NCBI GenBank assembly: GCA_001800135.1
Contig: MGUU01000010.1
Span: 273,495 to 337,494, forward strand
Direction of reading: 5' to 3'
Origin: Elusimicrobia bacterium RIFCSPLOWO2_02_FULL_39_32
Lineage (GTDB): Bacteria > Elusimicrobiota > Elusimicrobia > 2-02-FULL-39-32
Length of the DNA: 64,000 bases
Shown here in pieces: positions 1 through 12,577 of the stretch. How positions within the stretch are numbered: the first letter of the stretch is position 1; each line of letters opens with the position of its first letter. Both the position numbers and the translations under genes were made by a program. Below the pieces are notes generated by a model. It ran no database searches. It was not told the origin of the DNA and saw only the letters and a program-made list of their open reading frames with translations.

Positions 1-651
1 TCTAAATATATTGAAGCAGAGTGTCAAGGTTTCACTGTAATTTATCATTGGTTTTATTATTTTTTTAACTGAACGGTAAACAAAGCTTTCAGAAACCTCT
101 TTATTTTTATCAAAAAATGATAAATTTACATCGTTTATTCCTATGAGAAGCAAAATCATTTTAGGTTTGATTTTAATAATAGAGTCCTCCATAAGAACTA
201 TATGTCCAGATGTGGAGTGGCCGTCTAACCCTGCGTTATTGATCCAACATTTATTAAATTTTTTTTCCATTTCTTTACCTAAGAGAAAGGGCCATGTTTT
301 TTCATCTGATAAGTAAAAACACTCAGTCGTGCTTCCTCCAATAGTCATTATTGTGAGGTAGTCTGTGAAATTTTGAGGCGGATTATCCCCCCTAAAACCT
401 AGAGAATTTCTGCTATGTTTTATTAATTTATCTAATTTTTTGTTTTTGTTGTTTTTTATTTCTATTTTTTCATTGATTGGCAGCGTTATTTTTCCTTGTT
501 TTATTCTAATTCTAAAGTCAAAAGGATTATAAATTCTAAGAAAAAGTTCTAAGGTAATAAAGGCAACCCCTAACCCTAGAATAAGAACTAAACTATTTTT
601 CCAGAAGTTAGATGAACGTTTCGTTTTATGGGGTAGGAACAATTGATTCAA
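1..651 (-). CDS. SGNH/GDSL-family hydrolase with N-terminal membrane anchor (partial; C-terminus runs off window start)
   Basis: Manual minus-strand translation gives an open frame from TTG at 649-651 down to position 1: MNQLFLPHKTKRSSNFWKNSLVLILGLGVAFITLELF...MTIGGSTTECFY...LLLIGINDVN... It has a TM helix, then GxS-T and GxND blocks typical of SGNH hydrolases. Not in the ORF track because no in-window stop. No ATG upstream of MTIGG; TTG start assumed. Confidence 0.45.
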   Translation of the reverse strand, partial: MNQLFLPHKTKRSSNFWKNSLVLILGLGVAFITLELFLRIYNPFDFRIRIKQGKITLPINEKIEIKNNKNKKLDKLIKHSRNSLGFRGDNPPQNFTDYLTIMTIGGSTTECFYLSDEKTWPFLLGKEMEKKFNKCWINNAGLDGHSTSGHIVLMEDSIIKIKPKMILLLIGINDVNLSFFDKNKEVSESFVYRSVKKIIKPMINYSETLTLCFNIFR

Positions 652-685
652 GTTTAAAGGTTCTGTTTAAGTGGATAGGAATCAA

Positions 686-2477
686 CTATTTAGTTATGAG
701 AGTATTTTGAAGAATTAATGCATCCATGCCGCTGTTCATGAATGTATTGTAGGCATTTTGGGGAGTATTGACAATGGCTTCGCCTTTGAGGTTGAAAGAG
801 GTGTTGAGAAGAACAGGAACTCCTGTAACTTCTCCAAATTTCTGAATCAGGCGGTGGTAACGCGGGTTGGTTTCTTTAAATACGGTTTGGAGCCGTCCTG
901 TGCCATCCGCGTGGGTAATGGCGGGTAAGTGAGATTGCTGCTCTTTCTTCACGGGCGTGACATAAAGCATGAACCGCGCGGGGTAATGTTTTTGGGCATC
1001 TGAAATATCAAAATATTTTTCGCATTCTTCTTGGATCACACTTGGCGCAAAGGGTCTAAAAGGCTCTCGAAACTTAATTTTAATGTTTACGATATCTTTC
1101 ATTTTTGGGTTTCTGGGGTCCGCTAAGATTGAACGGTTCCCTAAGCTCCTAGGTCCCCCATTCAAACGCTCCTTGATACCAACCAATCACATTCCCCTTC
1201 ATGAGACGATCAATTATTCTTTCAAATAATTTTTCATCATCCTCAATTGTTTCATATTTAATTCCTTCTTTATTTAAGAATTCATGAATTGAATTTTCTC
1301 CATGTTCTTCGCCCCAGAAGGCATGCTTCATTACAAACGCGCGGGGTTTTCCTAAGATCACATGATAAAAATAAAGAGCTGCTCCTATGGCCCCGCCAGA
1401 ATCTCCGGCCGCTGGCTGAATATAAATTTCTTCAAAAGGGGTTTCTTTAAGAATTCTATAATTGGCTACACTATTTAACGCTACCCCTCCAGCCATGCAA
1501 AGTTTTTTTAGACCTGTTTTTTTGTGCAGATATTTTGCCATTTTTAAGATAATTTCTTCAGTCACCTTTTGAATGCTTGCAGCTATATCCGCATAATATT
1601 GATTGATTTTTAATTCTTCTTCTGTGGGAGGATTAGGATCGTCAAAGAGGCTGGTTTTGTCAGTTACAAACCTTGCTTTTGGATTTCTAGGTTTACCAAA
1701 AAGTTTTGTGAATTTATCTGTAAAGGTTTTTTCAGAATGATAAGTGTAAGAGAAATAGGTCATGTCCAGAACAAAACTTCCATCCTCATTTATATGGATA
1801 AGTTTATAAATTTTTTCCATGTATTTGGGTTCGCCATAAGGAGACATGCCCATCATTTTATATTCCCCTTCATTCACCTCAAACCCTAAAAAGGCTGTGA
1901 AAGCAGAATAAAGCATTCCTAAAGAATGAGGAAAACGAATTTCGTTTTCTAAATCTAGGCTATTTTTTCCATGTGAACCATTCCAATAAGATTTCCCAAT
2001 GCCAAGACTTGCGCTGGTCCATTCCCCTACTCCATCCACTGTGAGAATGGCTGCTTCTTCATAAGGAGAGCAAAAAAATGCGCTGGCTGCATGGGAAAGA
2101 TGATGTTCAGAAAAGTAGATTTTTGATTCTGGAAGCCCTAATTTTTCTTGAAGAATATTTTTAATCCATAATTTTTTAGAGAGCCAAGTTTTCATCGCCT
2201 CTTGAAACAGTTTTAAGGAGCAGGGATAGCCGTAAAGAATAGAGAGTAATAGTCGTTCAAATTTTAAAAAAGGTTTTTCATAAAAAACACACGCGTCAAT
2301 ATCTTGAGGCATAATTTTTCCTTTTTTTAAACAAAAATTGATCGCATTTTTTGGAAAATCGCTATCATGCTTTATTCTGGAAAAGCGTTCTTCTTCAGCC
2401 GCGGCAATGAGCATGCCATCCTTAATTAAGGCACAGGCTGCATCATGGTAAAAACAGCTAATTCCTAAGATATTCAT
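686..2477 (-). pseudogene. NodU/CmcH-family carbamoyltransferase, split by a single-base frameshift in a G5 homopolymer (minus-strand sense; C5 on plus strand at 1155-1159)
   Basis: The 442-aa ORF (1149..2477) is the N-terminal YrdC/Kae1-like carbamoyltransferase domain (MNILGISCFYHDAACALIKDG...). The 166-aa ORF (686..1186) is the C-terminal domain (..GPRSLGNRSILADPRNP..FREPFRPFAPSV..). Removing one G restores the conserved junction EWGPRSLGNRS. Confidence 0.8.
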
Positions 2478-2556
2478 TTGTAGGCTAGGATTTCCGGGTT
2501 TAATGTCTGATTACAGATTTTTTTCGAATTCCACAATCCAAATGATTTAGGTTAAT

Positions 2557-2808
2557 TTAGTATTGTTTGGAAATATTTCCAATGGATTCAATAGTGGATT
2601 TGCGCATATGCCAATGAGTCTCTTTAGCTGATTTTTTTATTTCTAATGGATCTAAAAATAATTTAAGAACTATTGCATGAGGAGTAACAATAATAAAATA
2701 AAAAATTGTCAGAATAACTCCTGACATAAATTCCCTAAATTTGAAAGCAAATTTTTTCCATTGCTCCAATAGAAATTTTAATCTGAGCTTTAGAATTATA
2801 TTTTTCAT
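2557..2808 (-). CDS. small membrane protein, SxtJ-like (carbamoyltransferase-associated)
   Basis: 83-aa ORF with a hydrophobic segment, immediately upstream of the carbamoyltransferase. The position and size match the SxtJ-like partners of SxtI-type carbamoyltransferases. Family assignment is from recall only. Confidence 0.35.
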   Translation of the reverse strand: MKNIILKLRLKFLLEQWKKFAFKFREFMSGVILTIFYFIIVTPHAIVLKLFLDPLEIKKSAKETHWHMRKSTIESIGNISKQY

Positions 2809-2840
2809 CTTCTTATTTTTTAATGATTATTTTAGTTGGA

Positions 2841-3023
2841 TTAAAATAGAGTGTAGATGAAAGGAGCTACAGCAGATCCTTGGCTAAAAATTAGAATAAA
2901 ACCAATAAGGAGAAGTACTATGACCATTGGAATAAGCCACCAGAGTTTTCTTTCCCATAAGAAATTTAAAAAATCTTTTATGATTTTTGAACGGCTTTTT
3001 AAATTTTTAAAAAATTGAATCAT
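2841..3023 (-). CDS. DUF5989/SxtK-like small membrane protein
   Basis: 60 aa, single TM, and a C-terminus ...AVAPFIYTLF that I recognise as the characteristic end of DUF5989/SxtK proteins found beside carbamoyltransferases. Confidence 0.5.
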   Translation of the reverse strand: MIQFFKNLKSRSKIIKDFLNFLWERKLWWLIPMVIVLLLIGFILIFSQGSAVAPFIYTLF

Positions 3024-3084
3024 TAGTGTTTTTCCTTGTCAGATACCGTATCGCTCTTCGTGGGTGCGGAGAATCATTCTTTCA

Positions 3085-4830
3085 CTAAATTTTATTTTCT
3101 AATGAACTTTGAGTTGAAACAGATTTTTGTATAAGTTTTGGCAGAGCTTGAATGAGTAAGATGAGCGCTAATATAAAAAGCAAGAACGCGGTGGTTCCTA
3201 CAGGGTGAAAAACCGGTCCGCGTTTTAAGATTCCTAAAAGCCAGGGTTTTATAATCAAAATAAGAGAACCTAAAGTTGTCACTAGCATAAAGAGCGTTGG
3301 CAGCGCTGTAACCCACCATTTTTTTCCACTTTTTTTAAGCCAAACTGTAATGCCAAGTAATGTAAGAGCAGCCAGAAGTTGGTTAGTTGCGCCAAATACT
3401 GGCCAGAAGATTTTCCAAAGAGGAATGATTTTGCCATTGATTCCTTTTACCTCAATCATAATTAAAATGCCAGGAAAAAATAGTGTGAAGAAAGTTGCAA
3501 GAAATGCTCCAAATTTTCCTTTTAAACCGGTAAGTTCCTGAAATATGTAACGGCCTAAACGGGTAGCTACATCCAGCGTATCGTAAATAAAGGTAGCAAA
3601 CGCGAGTTTTCCAAAGGTGACTGCAGCGCCAAAACTCATGCCAAAAAGAGCCATAAAATGAGCCAGCCCTCTGGCATAAATTTCATCTGGTCCTAAAGAA
3701 AGAGTTTGATCATTGATAGGCAGTATCATGACTGTGGAAAGAGCCACAATTGCAACAAACGATTCTAAGAGCATTCCTCCATAACCCACTGCTTTAGCAT
3801 CTGGCTCTTGGCGCAGCTGTTTAGAGGTTGTACCGCTTGAAACTAAGCCATGAAATCCTGAACAAGCGCCGCAGGCAATGGTTGTAAAAAGTAAAGGGAA
3901 TATTGGCAGGCGCGGAGTGTCTGCAGTTTCTGGATGGATTAAAGCCGGATATTGAATCTCGAATCCTCCAAACAGAGTTCCTAAAACTCCTACAATAAAA
4001 GTAGCATAAAGAATGGTTGCTCCTAAATATCCTCTGGGCTGGAGTAAAGTCCAAAGGGGTATTACAGAAGCGATAAAACAATAGATTAGAATCAGAAAAT
4101 CCCAGCTTTTTCGAGAAGAGCCTAAAATAGGAGGAAGTTCTATTGGTATTTGTTGGCCAAGAAAAATGATTAAAAAAACTAAAGGAATAAAAATAAAACT
4201 TGCTTTTTTAAGACTCCAGTTCCAGCGGTAAAGACAGAATCCCATGAGAAGAGCTAACCCTAAATAAAGGAAAGAAGAAGTTGCAACCCCTGGCCCAAAA
4301 TTTTCTTCGCCTAACTCTGGACGGCTTACAAAAGCTCCTGCGGTTAAATCCGTAAAAACTACAATGACATATAAGAGGGATATCCAGATAAAAATAAGAA
4401 AAAGAAAATAGGCTTTTTGTCCAATATAGAGCTTTACGACTTCTGCTACAGATTTGGCATCGTGCCTGATGGAAGCGACTAAAGCGGAAAAATCATGCAC
4501 CCCCCCAATAAAAACAGCTCCAATCGCTATCCAAAGCAGGCTGGGCAGCCAGCCATAAAGGCTTCCGGCAAGAATCGGTCCGGCAATAGGGCCCACAGCT
4601 GCGATTGCCGCAAAATGCTGGCCAATTAAAATAGCAGGGGATGCGGGAACAAAGTCGCTGCCATCATTAATTTTGCAAGCAGGGGTAATATTTTCTTTTG
4701 TTAGACCAAATACATTTGCGATAAATTTTCCATAAAAAAAATATCCAGCAAGTAAAATTGAGATGGAAATAAGGGTGATCAGTAATAAGGACATAAAATT
4801 TAGATTATAATAAAAGGGTATTTTATTCAA
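3085..4830 (-). CDS. cstA: carbon starvation protein A (CstA peptide/pyruvate transporter family)
   Basis: 581-aa polytopic membrane protein with CstA N-terminal signature (..ACKINDGSDFVPASPAILIGQHFAAIAAVGPIAGPILA..). The true start may be the internal Met at 4794. Confidence 0.85.
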   Translation of the reverse strand: MNKIPFYYNLNFMSLLLITLISISILLAGYFFYGKFIANVFGLTKENITPACKINDGSDFVPASPAILIGQHFAAIAAVGPIAGPILAGSLYGWLPSLLWIAIGAVFIGGVHDFSALVASIRHDAKSVAEVVKLYIGQKAYFLFLIFIWISLLYVIVVFTDLTAGAFVSRPELGEENFGPGVATSSFLYLGLALLMGFCLYRWNWSLKKASFIFIPLVFLIIFLGQQIPIELPPILGSSRKSWDFLILIYCFIASVIPLWTLLQPRGYLGATILYATFIVGVLGTLFGGFEIQYPALIHPETADTPRLPIFPLLFTTIACGACSGFHGLVSSGTTSKQLRQEPDAKAVGYGGMLLESFVAIVALSTVMILPINDQTLSLGPDEIYARGLAHFMALFGMSFGAAVTFGKLAFATFIYDTLDVATRLGRYIFQELTGLKGKFGAFLATFFTLFFPGILIMIEVKGINGKIIPLWKIFWPVFGATNQLLAALTLLGITVWLKKSGKKWWVTALPTLFMLVTTLGSLILIIKPWLLGILKRGPVFHPVGTTAFLLFILALILLIQALPKLIQKSVSTQSSLENKI

Positions 4831-4941
4831 GTTTTTTCGTGACTTCTATAATGCATAAATTAAAAGTGCATAGTTTCAATTTTATTTAATAGTAGTCAAC
4901 TTTGATTTATGAATTTATTAATTTTTAGTACAATTCTAATT

Positions 4942-6357
4942 ATGAAGATCGTTTTTATTAATCCCCCATTTGATATTATTCAAAAAGCATATGGTTCAGC
5001 TCGTAAAGGAACTAAATATGGATATTGGGCTCCTTTTGGGATCGCAGTTCTTGCTGGCATCATAAAGAAATTGGATTGTAAATTTGAATATATTGATTCA
5101 ACAATTTTAGATTATACTCAGCAAGATGTCGTAAACCATGTTATACAATCCCAACCAGACATGATTGGCATCACTGCACAATTGGCCACTCGTGAAGTTG
5201 TAAAACATCTTATTCAGATGATTCGTGAAAAATCTGCAGCTCCAATTTTTTTAGGTGGCACTCTAGCCACCACCTTTGCGGAAAGCGTGATGTTAGAAAA
5301 TCCTGGATTAGACTATGTAGTGATAGGAGAAGCAGAGCAGACTCTTCAAGAATTAATTCTTAAAATAAGAAATAAGGCGGATATCTCAACAGTAAAAGGA
5401 ATCTGTTACAGGAGTGGAGACAAAATTATTAGGACTCCATCGCGACCCATTTTAATGAATTTAGATCTTTTACCACAACCAGATTTTGGAGTATTTGATC
5501 TAAAACGATATATTCCCCTTCCTCTTCAATATAAAAAGAAACCCATCATCGCTTATCTTTCCTCACGCGGTTGTTCTTATGGCCGTTGCACTTTTTGTTT
5601 TGAATCCGGCAGCGCAGCCCAAAAATATCGTCGCCATTCAGTTAAAAGAGTTATTGCAGATATTCAAATGGCTGTAGAAGAACAGGGGGTTAAAGAAGTA
5701 GCTTTTTGGGATGATATTTTTTTAGTTGATGAACCTTGGGTTTTGGAATTTTGTGAACTTCTTCATCAGAATAAAATAGAGATCGCATGGCAATGTTATG
5801 GTTATGCGGGTTCAATGACTAAAAAGATGGTAGATGCTTCTGCAAAATCCGGGTGCTGGAATGTTTATATTGGTTTTGAGTCCGCAACTCAAACTGTCTT
5901 AGACCAAGTAAAAAAAGGGGTAACAGTTGAGCAATTAGCTCAATCCATTGGTTGGGTTAGAGATGCAGGGATGGATGTTCGTGGCTCTTTTATTTTATCC
6001 TTGCCTGGAGAAACTCCTCAAACTGCCATGGAAAGCGTAAAATTTGCAATTAAAAATGATATTACCTACATGCTTTTTCATCCATATTTTCCAGAGTATG
6101 GAACAGAATTATACAGCGAATTAGCTCGAGAAGGTAAAATTATTGATGAATATAAGGGGAGGACCACTGCGCAATATATTCCTGAAGGCTACAAGGATGC
6201 AAAAGAGGTGGAATTCATTATTCGTAAAGCGTATAAAAAATTTTATTTTCGTCCAAGTTATGTGCTTAAACATATTAATAAAATTCGGAGCTGGGATGAT
6301 TTCAAGCAATATTATGAAGCGATGCGATTTGTAGCTGGGATTGCATTTTCTGGTTAG
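4942..6357 (+). CDS. B12-binding-domain radical SAM protein (class B)
   Basis: N-terminal cobalamin-binding-like domain (MKIVFINPP...) followed by a radical SAM core with a cysteine motif (SRGCSYGRCTFCFES). The ORF track starts at 4909; the start is probably Met at 4942. Confidence 0.8.
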   Translation: MKIVFINPPFDIIQKAYGSARKGTKYGYWAPFGIAVLAGIIKKLDCKFEYIDSTILDYTQQDVVNHVIQSQPDMIGITAQLATREVVKHLIQMIREKSAAPIFLGGTLATTFAESVMLENPGLDYVVIGEAEQTLQELILKIRNKADISTVKGICYRSGDKIIRTPSRPILMNLDLLPQPDFGVFDLKRYIPLPLQYKKKPIIAYLSSRGCSYGRCTFCFESGSAAQKYRRHSVKRVIADIQMAVEEQGVKEVAFWDDIFLVDEPWVLEFCELLHQNKIEIAWQCYGYAGSMTKKMVDASAKSGCWNVYIGFESATQTVLDQVKKGVTVEQLAQSIGWVRDAGMDVRGSFILSLPGETPQTAMESVKFAIKNDITYMLFHPYFPEYGTELYSELAREGKIIDEYKGRTTAQYIPEGYKDAKEVEFIIRKAYKKFYFRPSYVLKHINKIRSWDDFKQYYEAMRFVAGIAFSG

Positions 6358-6417
6358 TTAAAATGAACCTCAGCACCCTCAAAAGGGCGATGAGGGATAC
6401 AACAAAGGAAAACACTA

Positions 6418-6984
6418 ATGAAATATAAAGTGATTTATAAACGAAAAGAGTGTATTGGAGCCAATTCTTGCGTTGGGGTGTTACCAGAATTCTGGAGTTT
6501 GGATCATGAAAAAAAAGCGGTACTTAAAGGCTCAATCTTAAATCCAGAAACTGGCTGTTATGAACTTATTGTTAATAGTGATGAATTAGAAAGATTTAAA
6601 GAATCTGCCTTAGTCTGTCCAGTTTATGTGATCAATATCATTGATCTTCAAACTCAAAAAACAATCTTAGAGATTTTTGAAGAGAATAGAGAGATTGAAA
6701 AAGAGAGCGCTCCAGTGATTAAGGCACGCCCAAATACGGAAAAGGAATCACAAAGCGAACCAAAGGGTTTTTTTACCATTCAAAGCGATTCAAACAAAAA
6801 GCTGATCAAAGCGCTCTATTACGGGCCAAAACATCAGTTACTTTTTGTGATCGAGGGTAAAAACGCAGAGGAGCTTTATCAAACGATCATAAGAGAAGGT
6901 TTTGTTACTTCTCTCACGCAAGCAGCTTATTTAGGAGGCGAGTTGAAGAGAGCTGAAATGAGTTTTCAAGAAAATTCCGTATGA
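6418..6984 (+). CDS. hypothetical protein with degenerate ferredoxin-like N-terminus and C-terminal AAYLGxELxRAE motif domain (DUF4346-like, uncertain)
   Basis: The N-terminus CIGANSCVGVLPEFW...ALVCPVYV resembles a single-cluster ferredoxin with the middle Cys replaced. The C-terminal half has a YYGPKH...AAYLGGELKRAE motif. Co-oriented with and immediately downstream of the radical SAM gene. Confidence 0.4.
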   Translation: MKYKVIYKRKECIGANSCVGVLPEFWSLDHEKKAVLKGSILNPETGCYELIVNSDELERFKESALVCPVYVINIIDLQTQKTILEIFEENREIEKESAPVIKARPNTEKESQSEPKGFFTIQSDSNKKLIKALYYGPKHQLLFVIEGKNAEELYQTIIREGFVTSLTQAAYLGGELKRAEMSFQENSV

Positions 6985-7790
6985 AGGAGTATAAACGAAC
7001 TCGCTACAAGGGAAGCTGTTTCAGCTCGTAAAATATTGTTTCCTATGGTTACGGCAAGGATTCCCTGTTTTTTTGTCTCCTGGATTTCTTCAATAGTAAA
7101 ACCACCTTCAGGTCCTATAAAAACATGGATTTTAGACTTTTGAAAAGATTGTGTTTGATGAAGAATTTTTGAAAGACTAATTTTTTCCTCACCTTCCCAA
7201 AGAATAATTTTTAAATCATCGCTGTTTTCCTTTGTTGTAACTTGCATTGTCCTTTCAGGGTGCGGAGCATCATTTTTTTTAATTTTTTTAAAAACTTCTT
7301 TTAGGGAGAGCGGGGTAGATATGGTGGGTAAGGTTTTTCTTCCGCTTTGTTTTGCTGCGGACAAAATAATCTTTTCCCATCTTGTTATCTTAGTTTTAGA
7401 TTTTTCTGGAGAAAAGTGAATTTGTGTTCGTTCCGTAAGAATAGGCTGGATGGAGGTCACTCCAATTTCTGTGACCTTTTGAATCATCCATTCAAAATTA
7501 GAATTTTGAATCAAAGCTGGGTAGAGATGTAAGGAGATATCAGGATGATTTTTTTCAGAAGAAGGAACGCACCTGTCAGCGTCAAAAGCTGGAAAGATTT
7601 CCCCTTTAACTTTGTTTGAATTAGAGGTTTCTGTAATTTGGGCAGACCCAACCCATCCTTCTCCATCAAAAATTTGAATAAGATCCCCTGGTTTTTTTCT
7701 TAAAACTCGCGCAATGTGATGGGATTCAGAAGGCTCAAAGAAGAAAGAATTAGATTGAATATTTTTTTTTGGAACGAAAAATTGCGGCAA
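6966..7790 (-). CDS. rsmE: 16S rRNA (uracil1498-N3)-methyltransferase
   Basis: N-terminal MPQFFVP...HHIARVLR and C-terminal GPEGGFT..E.....G......G..ILRAETA are the RsmE hallmarks. Located downstream of dnaJ as in Firmicutes. Confidence 0.75.
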   Translation of the reverse strand: MPQFFVPKKNIQSNSFFFEPSESHHIARVLRKKPGDLIQIFDGEGWVGSAQITETSNSNKVKGEIFPAFDADRCVPSSEKNHPDISLHLYPALIQNSNFEWMIQKVTEIGVTSIQPILTERTQIHFSPEKSKTKITRWEKIILSAAKQSGRKTLPTISTPLSLKEVFKKIKKNDAPHPERTMQVTTKENSDDLKIILWEGEEKISLSKILHQTQSFQKSKIHVFIGPEGGFTIEEIQETKKQGILAVTIGNNILRAETASLVASSFILLHTEFS

Positions 7791-10832: not shown

Positions 10833-11426
10833 TTATTTCGTTTCTTTAATTCTTATCTTAGCCACTTTAACCTTTGCTGGTCTTATAAGCTGGCCGTTTA
10901 AGGTATAACCTTTTTGAATTTCTTCTAAAATAATATTGTTCTCCTCTTCTTTGTTCGTTTCTATTTGCTCCAACGCTTCATGCAGATGAGGGTCAAAATG
11001 TTCTCCCAGGGTTTTTAGCGGTTGGGCGCCTTCTGATTTTAAGAATCTAAAAAATTCTTGCACGACAATTTCAAAACCTTTAATTAAAGAATTAATATCT
11101 GTTGCGTTTTGAGAATGTTTTAATGCCCCCTCCATGACATCTAAGATCGTTATCATTCTTTCAATCATGATCACTCTGCCAAATTTTAGCGCCTCCATTT
11201 TTTCTTTTTCTACTCTTTTACGATAATTGGCGAATTCCGCCTGTAATCTGAGGAGCTGGTCTAAATAATTTTGAGTTTTTGTTTTTAGAGCATCTAACGA
11301 TTCCTCTTCTTTTGCAGTCTCTTCCATAAACTGTTCTATTTTTTGAATCTCCTCTTTTTTCTCTTGGTCAGAGGGTTCTATAGTTTTTTTTGATTTAGAT
11401 AGATCTTCTGAATCTGGATTAACCAT
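10833..11426 (-). CDS. grpE: nucleotide exchange factor GrpE
   Basis: Coiled-coil N-terminus plus the GrpE signature ([13 protein letters not shown]...GFEIV). Confidence 0.85.
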
Positions 11427-11428
11427 AA

Positions 11429-12577
11429 CTACCTTTCCTCCAATTCCTTTAACATCTTATTCACCATTTGGGAAACATAATCCACTAAAGAAATCATTTT
11501 TGGATATTCCATCCGCTTTGGCCCTAAAATGCCAAGAACCCCCACTGTTTTATCCGCCAGTTGATAGGTGGATGATATAACGCTTAAATTTTGCAATGCC
11601 TTATTTAGATTTTCCGAACCTATCCTCACATGAACCCGTCCTATTTTTTTTGGTTCCGAATGTTCTGATTTTGTTCGCAAGCGGTCATTTAAATTTTTAG
11701 TTTTAATCTGTTCCTTAGAATTTTGAGATTTTTGATCCTCTAAGATTTCATGCTCTAGGATATTAGTTAAAATCTGCTTTTCTTCGATTACTTTGAGCAG
11801 ATTTTGTAAGTCCGCTGCTCCGGAAAAATCCGGAAGAGAGAGTATGTTGCTTGCTCCTTCAAGGTAGATTTCACCTGAGGAAAATTTTTTAATCTCTTCT
11901 CCTATTTCCCTAGCCAGACTAAAAATTTCTTTAGTTTCTTCTTGTAAGTTTTCTAGACACTCCACCAATTTTAATTTCACGTTTTCTAAGGTAGAGCCTT
12001 GAAAGTTTTGATTGATAATTCTTGCTATTTTACGCAGATGTTCTTTTGGGATTTCTATTTGAGTGTTGATTGTAAAATGTTTAGCCAATCCTGACTCGGT
12101 AATCATGGCGCAAAGAATTCTTTTATTGGTAATGGGAACTAATTCCAAACAAGAAAATATATTTTTTTCCCACTTAGGAGTCATGACAAAACCCGTATAG
12201 TGAGAAAGAGTTGAAAGCATCCTGGAAGTTTGGCTCATAAAATCCTCAACCTCTTTAATTCGGGCTTCATATTCGGTTTGAATTCTTACTTGTTCCTGGA
12301 CCGCCAATCGCTGCATTTCTACAAGCGAATCCACATAGAGCCTATATCCTTTATCTGTTGGGATTCTTCCGGCTGAGGCGTGCGGCTGAGCAATCATCCC
12401 AGACTTTTCCAGTTCAAAAAGAGTATGGCGGATAGAAGCTGAAGAAAGTCCCAAGCGGCTTGTATTAGAGATACTATGAGAACCAACAGGCTTTCCTGTG
12501 CGGATATGCTCATGGATCACATACTGCAGGACTTTTTTCTTTCTTTCTTCGATTTCTTCTTGGTTTAAGGCGCGCAT
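11429..12577 (-). CDS. hrcA: heat-inducible transcription repressor HrcA
   Basis: N-terminal wHTH (LQYVIHEHIRTGKPVGSHSIS) and HrcA C-domain. The ORF track starts at a GTG (12589) that lies inside the CIRCE palindrome; ATG at 12577 (MRALNQ..) is preferred. Confidence 0.85.
   Translation of the reverse strand: MRALNQEEIEERKKKVLQYVIHEHIRTGKPVGSHSISNTSRLGLSSASIRHTLFELEKSGMIAQPHASAGRIPTDKGYRLYVDSLVEMQRLAVQEQVRIQTEYEARIKEVEDFMSQTSRMLSTLSHYTGFVMTPKWEKNIFSCLELVPITNKRILCAMITESGLAKHFTINTQIEIPKEHLRKIARIINQNFQGSTLENVKLKLVECLENLQEETKEIFSLAREIGEEIKKFSSGEIYLEGASNILSLPDFSGAADLQNLLKVIEEKQILTNILEHEILEDQKSQNSKEQIKTKNLNDRLRTKSEHSEPKKIGRVHVRIGSENLNKALQNLSVISSTYQLADKTVGVLGILGPKRMEYPKMISLVDYVSQMVNKMLKELEER

Follow-up and report, generated by a model that had tools for sequence, protein, structure and literature searches.

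Four tightly packed genes at the start of a 64,000-nucleotide stretch of DNA from the groundwater bacterium Elusimicrobia bacterium RIFCSPLOWO2_02_FULL_39_32 (contig MGUU01000010.1, positions 273,495 to 337,494, henceforth the window) raise the question of what a carbamoyltransferase gene does in the company of two genes for tiny membrane proteins and one for an SGNH hydrolase, and whether this particular set still works. In our reading, which we hold with moderate confidence, the region is the head of a co-directional cluster for envelope-glycan modification that carries a widespread cassette, the enzyme gene of which was recently inactivated by one extra G. The four genes all lie on the minus strand with gaps of 32, 79, and 34 bp between them, and their features are as follows, with protein lengths in amino acids (aa).

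2841-3023, minus strand: DUF5989 (SxtK-like) gene, 60 aa, with a match to Pfam PF19451.
2557-2808, minus strand: short SxtJ-family gene (ORF2), 83 aa, with a profile-profile match to PF19588 proteins.
1149-2477, minus strand: 5' part of the carbamoyltransferase gene, 442 codons, Kae1-like domain (Carbam_trans_N), ending at a premature TAG at 1149-1151.
1155-1159, minus strand: frameshift site, G5 on the coding strand (C5 on the plus strand), G4 in relatives.
686-1154, minus strand: 3' part of the carbamoyltransferase gene, YrdC-like domain (Carbam_trans_C on the repaired protein), read in the +1 frame with respect to the 5' part.
1-651, minus strand: SGNH/GDSL hydrolase gene, first 217 of 388 codons, TTG start at 649-651, with a match to Lipase_GDSL_2.

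The carbamoyltransferase gene occupies 686-2477 and is read as two overlapping open reading frames (ORFs), 1149-2477 (442 aa) and 686-1186. The coding strand at the break reads GAATGGGGGACCTAGG, and removal of one G gives GWYQGAFEWGPRSLGNRSILADPR and a 596-aa product with both domains in full. This repaired protein matches Carbam_trans_N over profile positions 2-346 of 346 (E 6.3e-84, 282.8 bits against a cutoff of 24) and, only after the G has been removed, Carbam_trans_C over positions 2-170 of 170 (E 2.5e-69), a region that public gene callers report as a product of its own, 138 aa long. Alignments with NovN (9S2T, 1.6e-92), GdmN (7VYJ), and TobZ (3VEN, 7e-73) extend over the whole repaired protein, and the sequences HHLSH, DGVGE, AAGDSGG, GPRSLGNRS, and NTSFN, candidates for the conserved metal- and nucleotide-binding motifs, align with NovN and GdmN. 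Against the model for NodU proper (NCBIfam NF041651) it reaches 140 bits, far from the equivalog cutoff of 1000. By these matches the protein is a relative within the NodU/CmcH (TobZ-type) family, not NodU, with a predicted carbamoyltransferase activity.

The DUF5989 protein matches PF19451 with an E value of 6e-22 (77.9 bits, cutoff 27) and combines a K/R-rich N-terminus, one hydrophobic helix as judged from hydropathy, and the C-terminal motif APFIYTLF. It is 95% identical to the copy in a sister genome (L001; labels of this form denote the related loci and contigs) and is deposited in GenBank as the hypothetical protein OGR56385.1; the name DUF5989 was not found in the literature searched. 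Several public gene calls (ENA, JGI) place a 53-aa ORF on the opposite strand over this gene (window 2857-3018, plus strand; L030:3791-3952, minus strand), so that those protein sets lack the genuine 60-aa gene, which GenBank has. Separately, L014:438-2318 holds a single ORF that begins with a DUF5989 sequence (...APFIYAIF) and continues without a change of frame into a carbamoyltransferase missing the first ~20 residues. This ORF is either a real fusion or deletion or else a misassembly; if the fusion is real, the C-terminus of DUF5989 would be cytoplasmic.

Domain models alone did not place ORF2, as direct scans gave no Pfam or NCBIfam match at E<=0.1 and nine of 10 ORF2 relatives lacked a direct match to PF19588 at E<=1. 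A word-index search with the single ORF2 sequence likewise returned only three near-identical proteins, so that a family profile was required, and we built one from an alignment of homologs gathered at related loci. Compared with PF19588 proteins by hhalign, this profile matched columns 67-142 of the 142-column SxtJ alignment with 98.2% probability (E 4.9e-14). In a search of 5.8 billion sequences it recovered 10 PF19588 proteins at E values of 1.4e-6 to 7e-3, as well as two short members that carry the NCBI name "SxtJ family membrane protein." An exhaustive search with the profile gave 7,982 cluster representatives at E<=1e-3, which include stand-alone proteins of 72-83 aa, a form common among the matches, and the C-terminal part of proteins of 135-336 aa. 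ORF2 has one hydrophobic segment only, whereas the full SxtJ architecture of ~135-145 aa has two extra N-terminal hydrophobic helices, and its AlphaFold2 model is one long helix (residues 2-52, predicted local distance difference test score above 90) with a floppy tail. Because the ORF2 family is confined to columns 67-142, ORF2 is by profile comparison a short SxtJ without the two N-terminal helices, that is, the counterpart of the C-terminal half of a classical SxtJ of ~140 aa. The ratio of nonsynonymous to synonymous substitution rates (dN/dS) of ORF2 against L001 is 0.25.

The SGNH gene is cut by the edge of the window, and the fragment matches Lipase_GDSL_2 below the cutoff (E 2.2e-6, 28.7 bits against 32.9), whereas the full 388-aa protein, taken from the identical contig L035, reaches 45.3 bits against the same 32.9. 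A K/R-rich N-terminal flank precedes one transmembrane helix at residues 18-41, and the catalytic domain is therefore predicted to face outward. By eye, the candidate catalytic blocks I (Ser, GGSTTE), II (Gly, NAGLDG), and III (Asn, GIND) fall in the window and the candidate block V (Asp-x-x-His, DLMH) outside it.

To see how general the association is, we examined 29 loci, taken from contigs with one genome per species, that encode a relative of the carbamoyltransferase, and sought the small genes in them with home-made hidden Markov models. A co-directional DUF5989 gene lies beside the carbamoyltransferase gene in 18 of the 29 loci and an SxtJ-like gene in 15, and both small genes are present in all nine loci where the carbamoyltransferase is at least 54% identical to ours. 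These loci span Elusimicrobia, Acidobacteria, Omnitrophota, Gammaproteobacteria, and a genome of the candidate phyla radiation. Gene order varies (K-J-CT, J-CT-K, and CT-JK, where K, J, and CT stand for the DUF5989, SxtJ-like, and carbamoyltransferase genes), and the linkage of the three is far beyond chance. The SGNH gene takes part in several arrangements as well: L046 has DUF5989-SxtJ-CT-SGNH-methyltransferase, which is the order in the window, L037 has CT-SxtJ-SGNH-DUF5989, L002 has DUF5989-SxtJ-SGNH-CT, and L044:3775-9010 has CT-SGNH-DUF5989-short SxtJ-CT as a single co-directional block, with two carbamoyltransferase paralogs (568 and 594 aa) at its flanks. A phmmer search of the 29 loci with the window SGNH protein found the Elusimicrobia copies only; L008, L010, and L013 have SGNH-like genes for membrane-anchored products flanking the enzyme gene, which belong to other subfamilies and were seen with Pfam only, some of them below cutoff.

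In three loci of rumen Clostridia a full-length SxtJ-like protein and DUF5989 are fused in one protein of 205-207 aa encoded directly downstream of the carbamoyltransferase gene (L012:6111-6728, L013:7788-8411, and L022:7791-8411), and nothing points more strongly than these fusions to a physical cooperation of the two small proteins. Other kinds of association were seen as well. In Sphingomonas (L011:5121-5999) a ferritin-like, possibly di-iron, domain is fused to an SxtJ-like C-terminal helix, and in the SAR11 loci L024-L029 (about 5242-5990) a 247-248-aa protein with an N-terminus similar to that of the L011 protein precedes the carbamoyltransferase, its stop codon overlapped by a 53-aa DUF5989-like ORF; such arrangements may point to another substrate there, a hydrophobic one. 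Directly upstream of DUF5989-SxtJ-CT in L003 lies a 1096-aa ORF (2086-5376) with an N-terminus that resembles, by eye, the large subunit of carbamoyl-phosphate synthase, and its product would supply the carbamoyl donor.

The same partnership is known from cyanotoxin work. Saxitoxin clusters have the gene order sxtI-sxtJ-sxtK-sxtL, in which sxtL encodes a GDSL lipase, and the suomilide cluster has sxtJ/K/L-like genes together. Since sxtL is a GDSL lipase gene, each of the four parts found in the window, and not just I, J, and K, has a counterpart in sxt: an O-carbamoyltransferase of the NodU/CmcH type, SxtJ, the ~54-aa SxtK, and a GDSL/SGNH protein, adjacent and co-directional. Here the equation of SxtK with DUF5989 is our own putative reading, and the SGNH protein is likened to SxtL by its description as GDSL/SGNH. 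The window differs in its K-J-I-L order, in a short SxtJ of 83 aa against ~135 aa, in a broken carbamoyltransferase, and in a glycan context instead of a toxin or metabolite pathway. TobZ, NovN, and GdmN share the full-length two-domain architecture, Kae1-like N-terminal and YrdC-like C-terminal, but they act on soluble antibiotic intermediates, and the window copy is interrupted. To our knowledge, these enzymes have not been described with SxtJ or SxtK partners.

An initial annotation of this DNA made from the sequence alone withstands these comparisons in part. Its four minus-strand genes are all present, although the carbamoyltransferase gene is split; its DUF5989, carbamoyltransferase-family, and membrane-anchored SGNH assignments agree with the searches above; and its SxtJ-like ORF is borne out by profile homology, for the C-terminal half only and not by a direct match. 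The sxtI/J/K-like association that it proposed accords with the published gene order and extends to sxtL, and the small ORFs, which it would have given up had they lacked homologs next to carbamoyltransferases elsewhere, have such homologs across many phyla.

Whether the break in the enzyme gene is a real lesion can be judged from relatives and from other assemblies. Alignment with the carbamoyltransferases of L001 (93% identical) and L002 (72%) places the difference at a single extra G, G5 in the window against G4. Five public contigs from ENA, JGI, and NCBI (L030-L034) are 100% identical to the window over 3.1 kb, G5 included, and gene calls on them give the same 442-aa and 138-aa products. 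That the extra G is an assembly or sequencing artefact, with the gene intact in the cells, would suit a single-base difference in a homopolymer within an otherwise flawless gene, yet we consider it very unlikely: the five contigs come from different groups and pipelines (one ENA k141 megahit-style, one ENA scaffold, two JGI, and one NCBI), the 442-aa product occurs on 16 public contigs whereas none of 15 billion proteins has the repaired 596-aa sequence, and the 24 contigs read for ORF2 group with the same split neighbouring products. A run of five bases is, moreover, not a typical site of short-read errors. No intact allele of this population is on record among the public contigs checked, and in GenBank the locus tags 04235 (SGNH), 04245 (ORF2), and 04250 (DUF5989) have proteins while the tag between 04235 and 04245 has no product.

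The age of the lesion can be gauged from the coding sequence on its two sides. The dN/dS of the carbamoyltransferase against L001 is 0.085 before the lesion and 0.093 after it, and the 155 codons of the 3' part hold no second lesion; because the ratio after the lesion is still low (~0.09), the pseudogene would be young. In our own judgement, drawn from these alignments, the frameshift is a real and recent inactivation with a probable loss of activity, and the cassette accordingly carbamoylates, in all probability, nothing any more in this genome. The two small genes and the SGNH gene have no lesion where they can be read.

The same figures could be taken to mean that the carbamoyltransferase is still produced, either by a +1 ribosomal shift at UGG-GGG-ACC-UAG, where a change from GGG to GGA restores ...EWGPRSLGN..., or as a two-piece enzyme. 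Besides the unchanged dN/dS and the missing second lesion, a shift would be helped by the G-rich, Shine-Dalgarno-like run that directly precedes the in-frame stop. For two pieces it can be said that the 3' frame opens at a TTG (1184-1186) with a Shine-Dalgarno-like AAGGGG 7 nt upstream at good spacing (window 1184-1206), that both pieces together hold every native residue, and that the Kae1-like and YrdC-like domains are separable, since they act as separate proteins in the pathway to N6-threonylcarbamoyladenosine (t6A). The site, however, has no 3-nt spacer as in the prfB-type +1 signal, its P-site codon ACC is unable to re-pair in the +1 frame, and L001 and L002 encode the enzyme in one frame, so that recoding is not a family trait; on these grounds of spacing, P-site codon, and one-frame relatives a programmed +1 frameshift was set aside as the principal explanation. 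Separate pieces would meet at a break that lies 19 residues inside the Pfam C-domain and adjoins the conserved GPRxLGNRS motif, and a young lesion accounts for the low dN/dS equally well. We therefore regard continued production as quite unlikely and retain recent inactivation as the preferred explanation.

The corresponding locus of the sister genome (L001:7792-13600) has an intact carbamoyltransferase gene in a rearranged setting. There the enzyme gene is followed by a gene for a 407-aa ATPase-like protein, an SGNH gene truncated to 291 aa, and a 146-aa ORF, then by a duplicated 3' fragment of the carbamoyltransferase gene (11173-11518, about 91% identical), and finally by an ORF for a methyltransferase-like product of 227 aa and by another SGNH paralog, of 379 aa. 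With the enzyme frameshifted in the window and the SGNH gene truncated and rearranged in L001, the locus is thus unstable in both lineages. Loci for surface modification are often unstable.

What an intact cassette would act on is suggested by its surroundings, which we followed beyond the start of the window on the identical contig L035. On the same strand the SGNH gene is followed by genes for a methyltransferase with a Trm112-like zinc ribbon, a 436-aa membrane protein, a second methyltransferase, a GT9-like protein (4.4 kb downstream), and an epimerase/reductase resembling GDP-fucose synthase. The polytopic 436-aa protein, encoded between the two methyltransferases (L035:14387-15697), has no Pfam or NCBIfam match; it may be a glycan polymerase or a transferase of the GT-C type. 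The 10-kb flanks on both sides contain chaperone genes, cstA, a B12-binding radical SAM gene, the methyltransferases, the GT9-like gene, and the epimerase, and no polyketide synthase (PKS), nonribosomal peptide synthetase (NRPS), or other core metabolite genes were found within that distance. The initial annotation had described the cassette as adjoining cstA and the radical SAM gene rather than any secondary-metabolite cluster, an impression of its surroundings produced by the window edge, beyond which the methyltransferases, GT9-like gene, and epimerase follow.

Related cassettes stand in comparable company. That of L037 lies among a Wzx-type flippase, GT2 and GT4 transferases, a polysaccharide deacetylase, and an epimerase; that of L002 beside a PMT_2 glycosyltransferase, three epimerases, and a DegT aminotransferase; that of L004 beside a Wzy_C protein and a putative GT4 gene (GT4 by eye); that of L008 among NeuB, two DegT genes, and an epimerase; and that of L046 beside two GT4 genes. 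A precedent exists in Pseudomonas, where WapO (PA5005) is the putative 7-O-carbamoyltransferase of the inner-core heptose of lipopolysaccharide (LPS), wapO is embedded in an LPS-core cluster beside heptosyltransferase genes, and the O-carbamoyl group has been found chemically on the core (PMC8005017). The likeness, drawn from description, is that of a carbamoyltransferase beside heptosyltransferases to one beside a GT9-like gene with a marginal match. The polysaccharide-cluster contexts together with the WapO precedent favour O-carbamoylation of a membrane-bound glycan intermediate and so support a glycan as the substrate of the cassette. Carbamoylation of an envelope glycan, which the initial annotation had suggested, therefore fits the surroundings here and in these five clusters; with the enzyme frameshifted, there is probably none in this genome now.

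The substrate might also be a membrane lipid or, as with saxitoxin, a small secondary metabolite, with the nearby glycan genes a coincidence. This alternative has points of its own: products have been assigned only to members in clusters for toxins or antibiotics (sxt and suomilide), the nearest structures that have been solved belong to antibiotic enzymes, several contexts have no glycan genes, and the ferritin-like, possibly di-iron oxygenase, domains fused or adjacent to the SxtJ part in L011 and SAR11 hint at a hydrophobic substrate. We nevertheless hold it to be unlikely, because metabolite genes such as PKS or NRPS are missing from the 10-kb flanks here, because the cassette recurs inside Wzx/GT/Wzy/NeuB/DegT clusters in unrelated phyla, and because the SGNH family is mostly found in glycan clusters (four of the seven homologs looked up, the other three lying in unrelated places).

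With a glycan as the preferred substrate, the ancestral cassette may have worked as follows. The YrdC-like domain would make carbamoyl-AMP from carbamoyl phosphate and ATP in the cytoplasm, and the Kae1-like domain would transfer the carbamoyl group to a sugar hydroxyl. The two single-helix proteins might anchor this soluble enzyme to the inner membrane, the site at which a glycan intermediate, either lipid-linked or membrane-bound, would be presented; we infer this tethering solely from the tiny size and membrane character of SxtJ and DUF5989 and from the position of their genes next to that of a soluble enzyme. On the exported glycan, O-linked groups, acyl or carbamoyl, could then be trimmed or transferred by the SGNH domain, whose predicted orientation is outward; deacylation by this protein is an assumption only. 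What the analysis establishes is which families the four parts belong to, that their linkage is conserved, that the enzyme gene is frameshifted, and what surrounds the cassette, whereas the tethering, the glycan substrate, the part played by the SGNH protein, and the loss of activity are inferred.

A bolder arrangement would make the carbamoyltransferase, the two one-helix proteins, and the SGNH protein a trans-membrane relay that delivers the carbamoyl (or acyl) group to a glycan already outside, as the carbamoyl counterpart of acyltransferase-3/SGNH O-acetylation, with the G-run as an on/off switch of the surface mark. OafA/OafB-type systems combine a membrane acyltransferase with a periplasmic SGNH domain for the O-acetylation of glycans, and the cassette resembles them in that a donor in the cytoplasm, membrane components, whether small or integral, and an outward SGNH domain are encoded together in glycan clusters. 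It differs in that there is no acyltransferase-3 domain, that the group is carbamoyl and not acetyl, and that the SxtJ and DUF5989 proteins, with one helix each, could hardly form a channel alone. We rate such a relay as highly speculative and most improbable.

Several observations weigh against the reading of the region as a recently inactivated glycan-modification cassette. The topology signals of ORF2 and DUF5989 conflict, the charge distribution under the positive-inside rule being at odds with two kinds of natural fusion. The literature holds no experiment showing what SxtJ or SxtK do, in line with the description of the module as functionally uncharacterised in the initial annotation. 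The GT9 match is marginal (22.9 bits against 22), and about half of the contexts inspected (L003, L005-7, L010, L044, and L045) are without glycan genes. On the side of the lesion, dN/dS is as low downstream of the frameshift as upstream and all motifs are intact, which leaves room for continued expression by recoding or in two pieces, and the public contigs with G5 all come from one field site and possibly share reads, so that their agreement is not fully independent.

The upstream neighbour of the cassette is cstA, which ends 61 bp before the DUF5989 gene. An Rfam scan of window 1-7000 gave no match at E<=0.1, and promoter-like and terminator-like sites are no commoner than in shuffled sequence; no operon boundaries can therefore be drawn. 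A protein of Elusimicrobia bacterium RIFCSPLOWO2_02_FULL_39_32 matches ORF2 with 100% identity. Divergent from cstA, at 4909-6984 on the plus strand, lies the B12-binding radical SAM gene, followed by a ferredoxin/PterinBD-DUF4346 gene; the best NCBIfam matches of the radical SAM protein are BchE and HpnJ, far below their cutoffs, and on contig L032 its gene is called in two pieces (180 and 259 aa).

Taken by itself the cassette is fairly ordinary, one more copy of a known, widespread, and uncharacterised kind, and this copy is partly decayed; with the enzyme gene broken and the SGNH gene cut by the window edge, it adds little on mechanism. Useful leads are the short SxtJ form, the natural SxtJ-DUF5989 fusions, and the repeated placement of the cassette in polysaccharide clusters. 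That carbamoyltransferase, SxtJ, and SxtK go together has been known from the first description of the saxitoxin cluster onward, and the partnership has never been explained. Because the SxtJ core has ~8,000 cluster representatives across many phyla, solving its role would annotate many tiny membrane proteins now called hypothetical, and it might show as well how widely bacteria O-carbamoylate their surface glycans.

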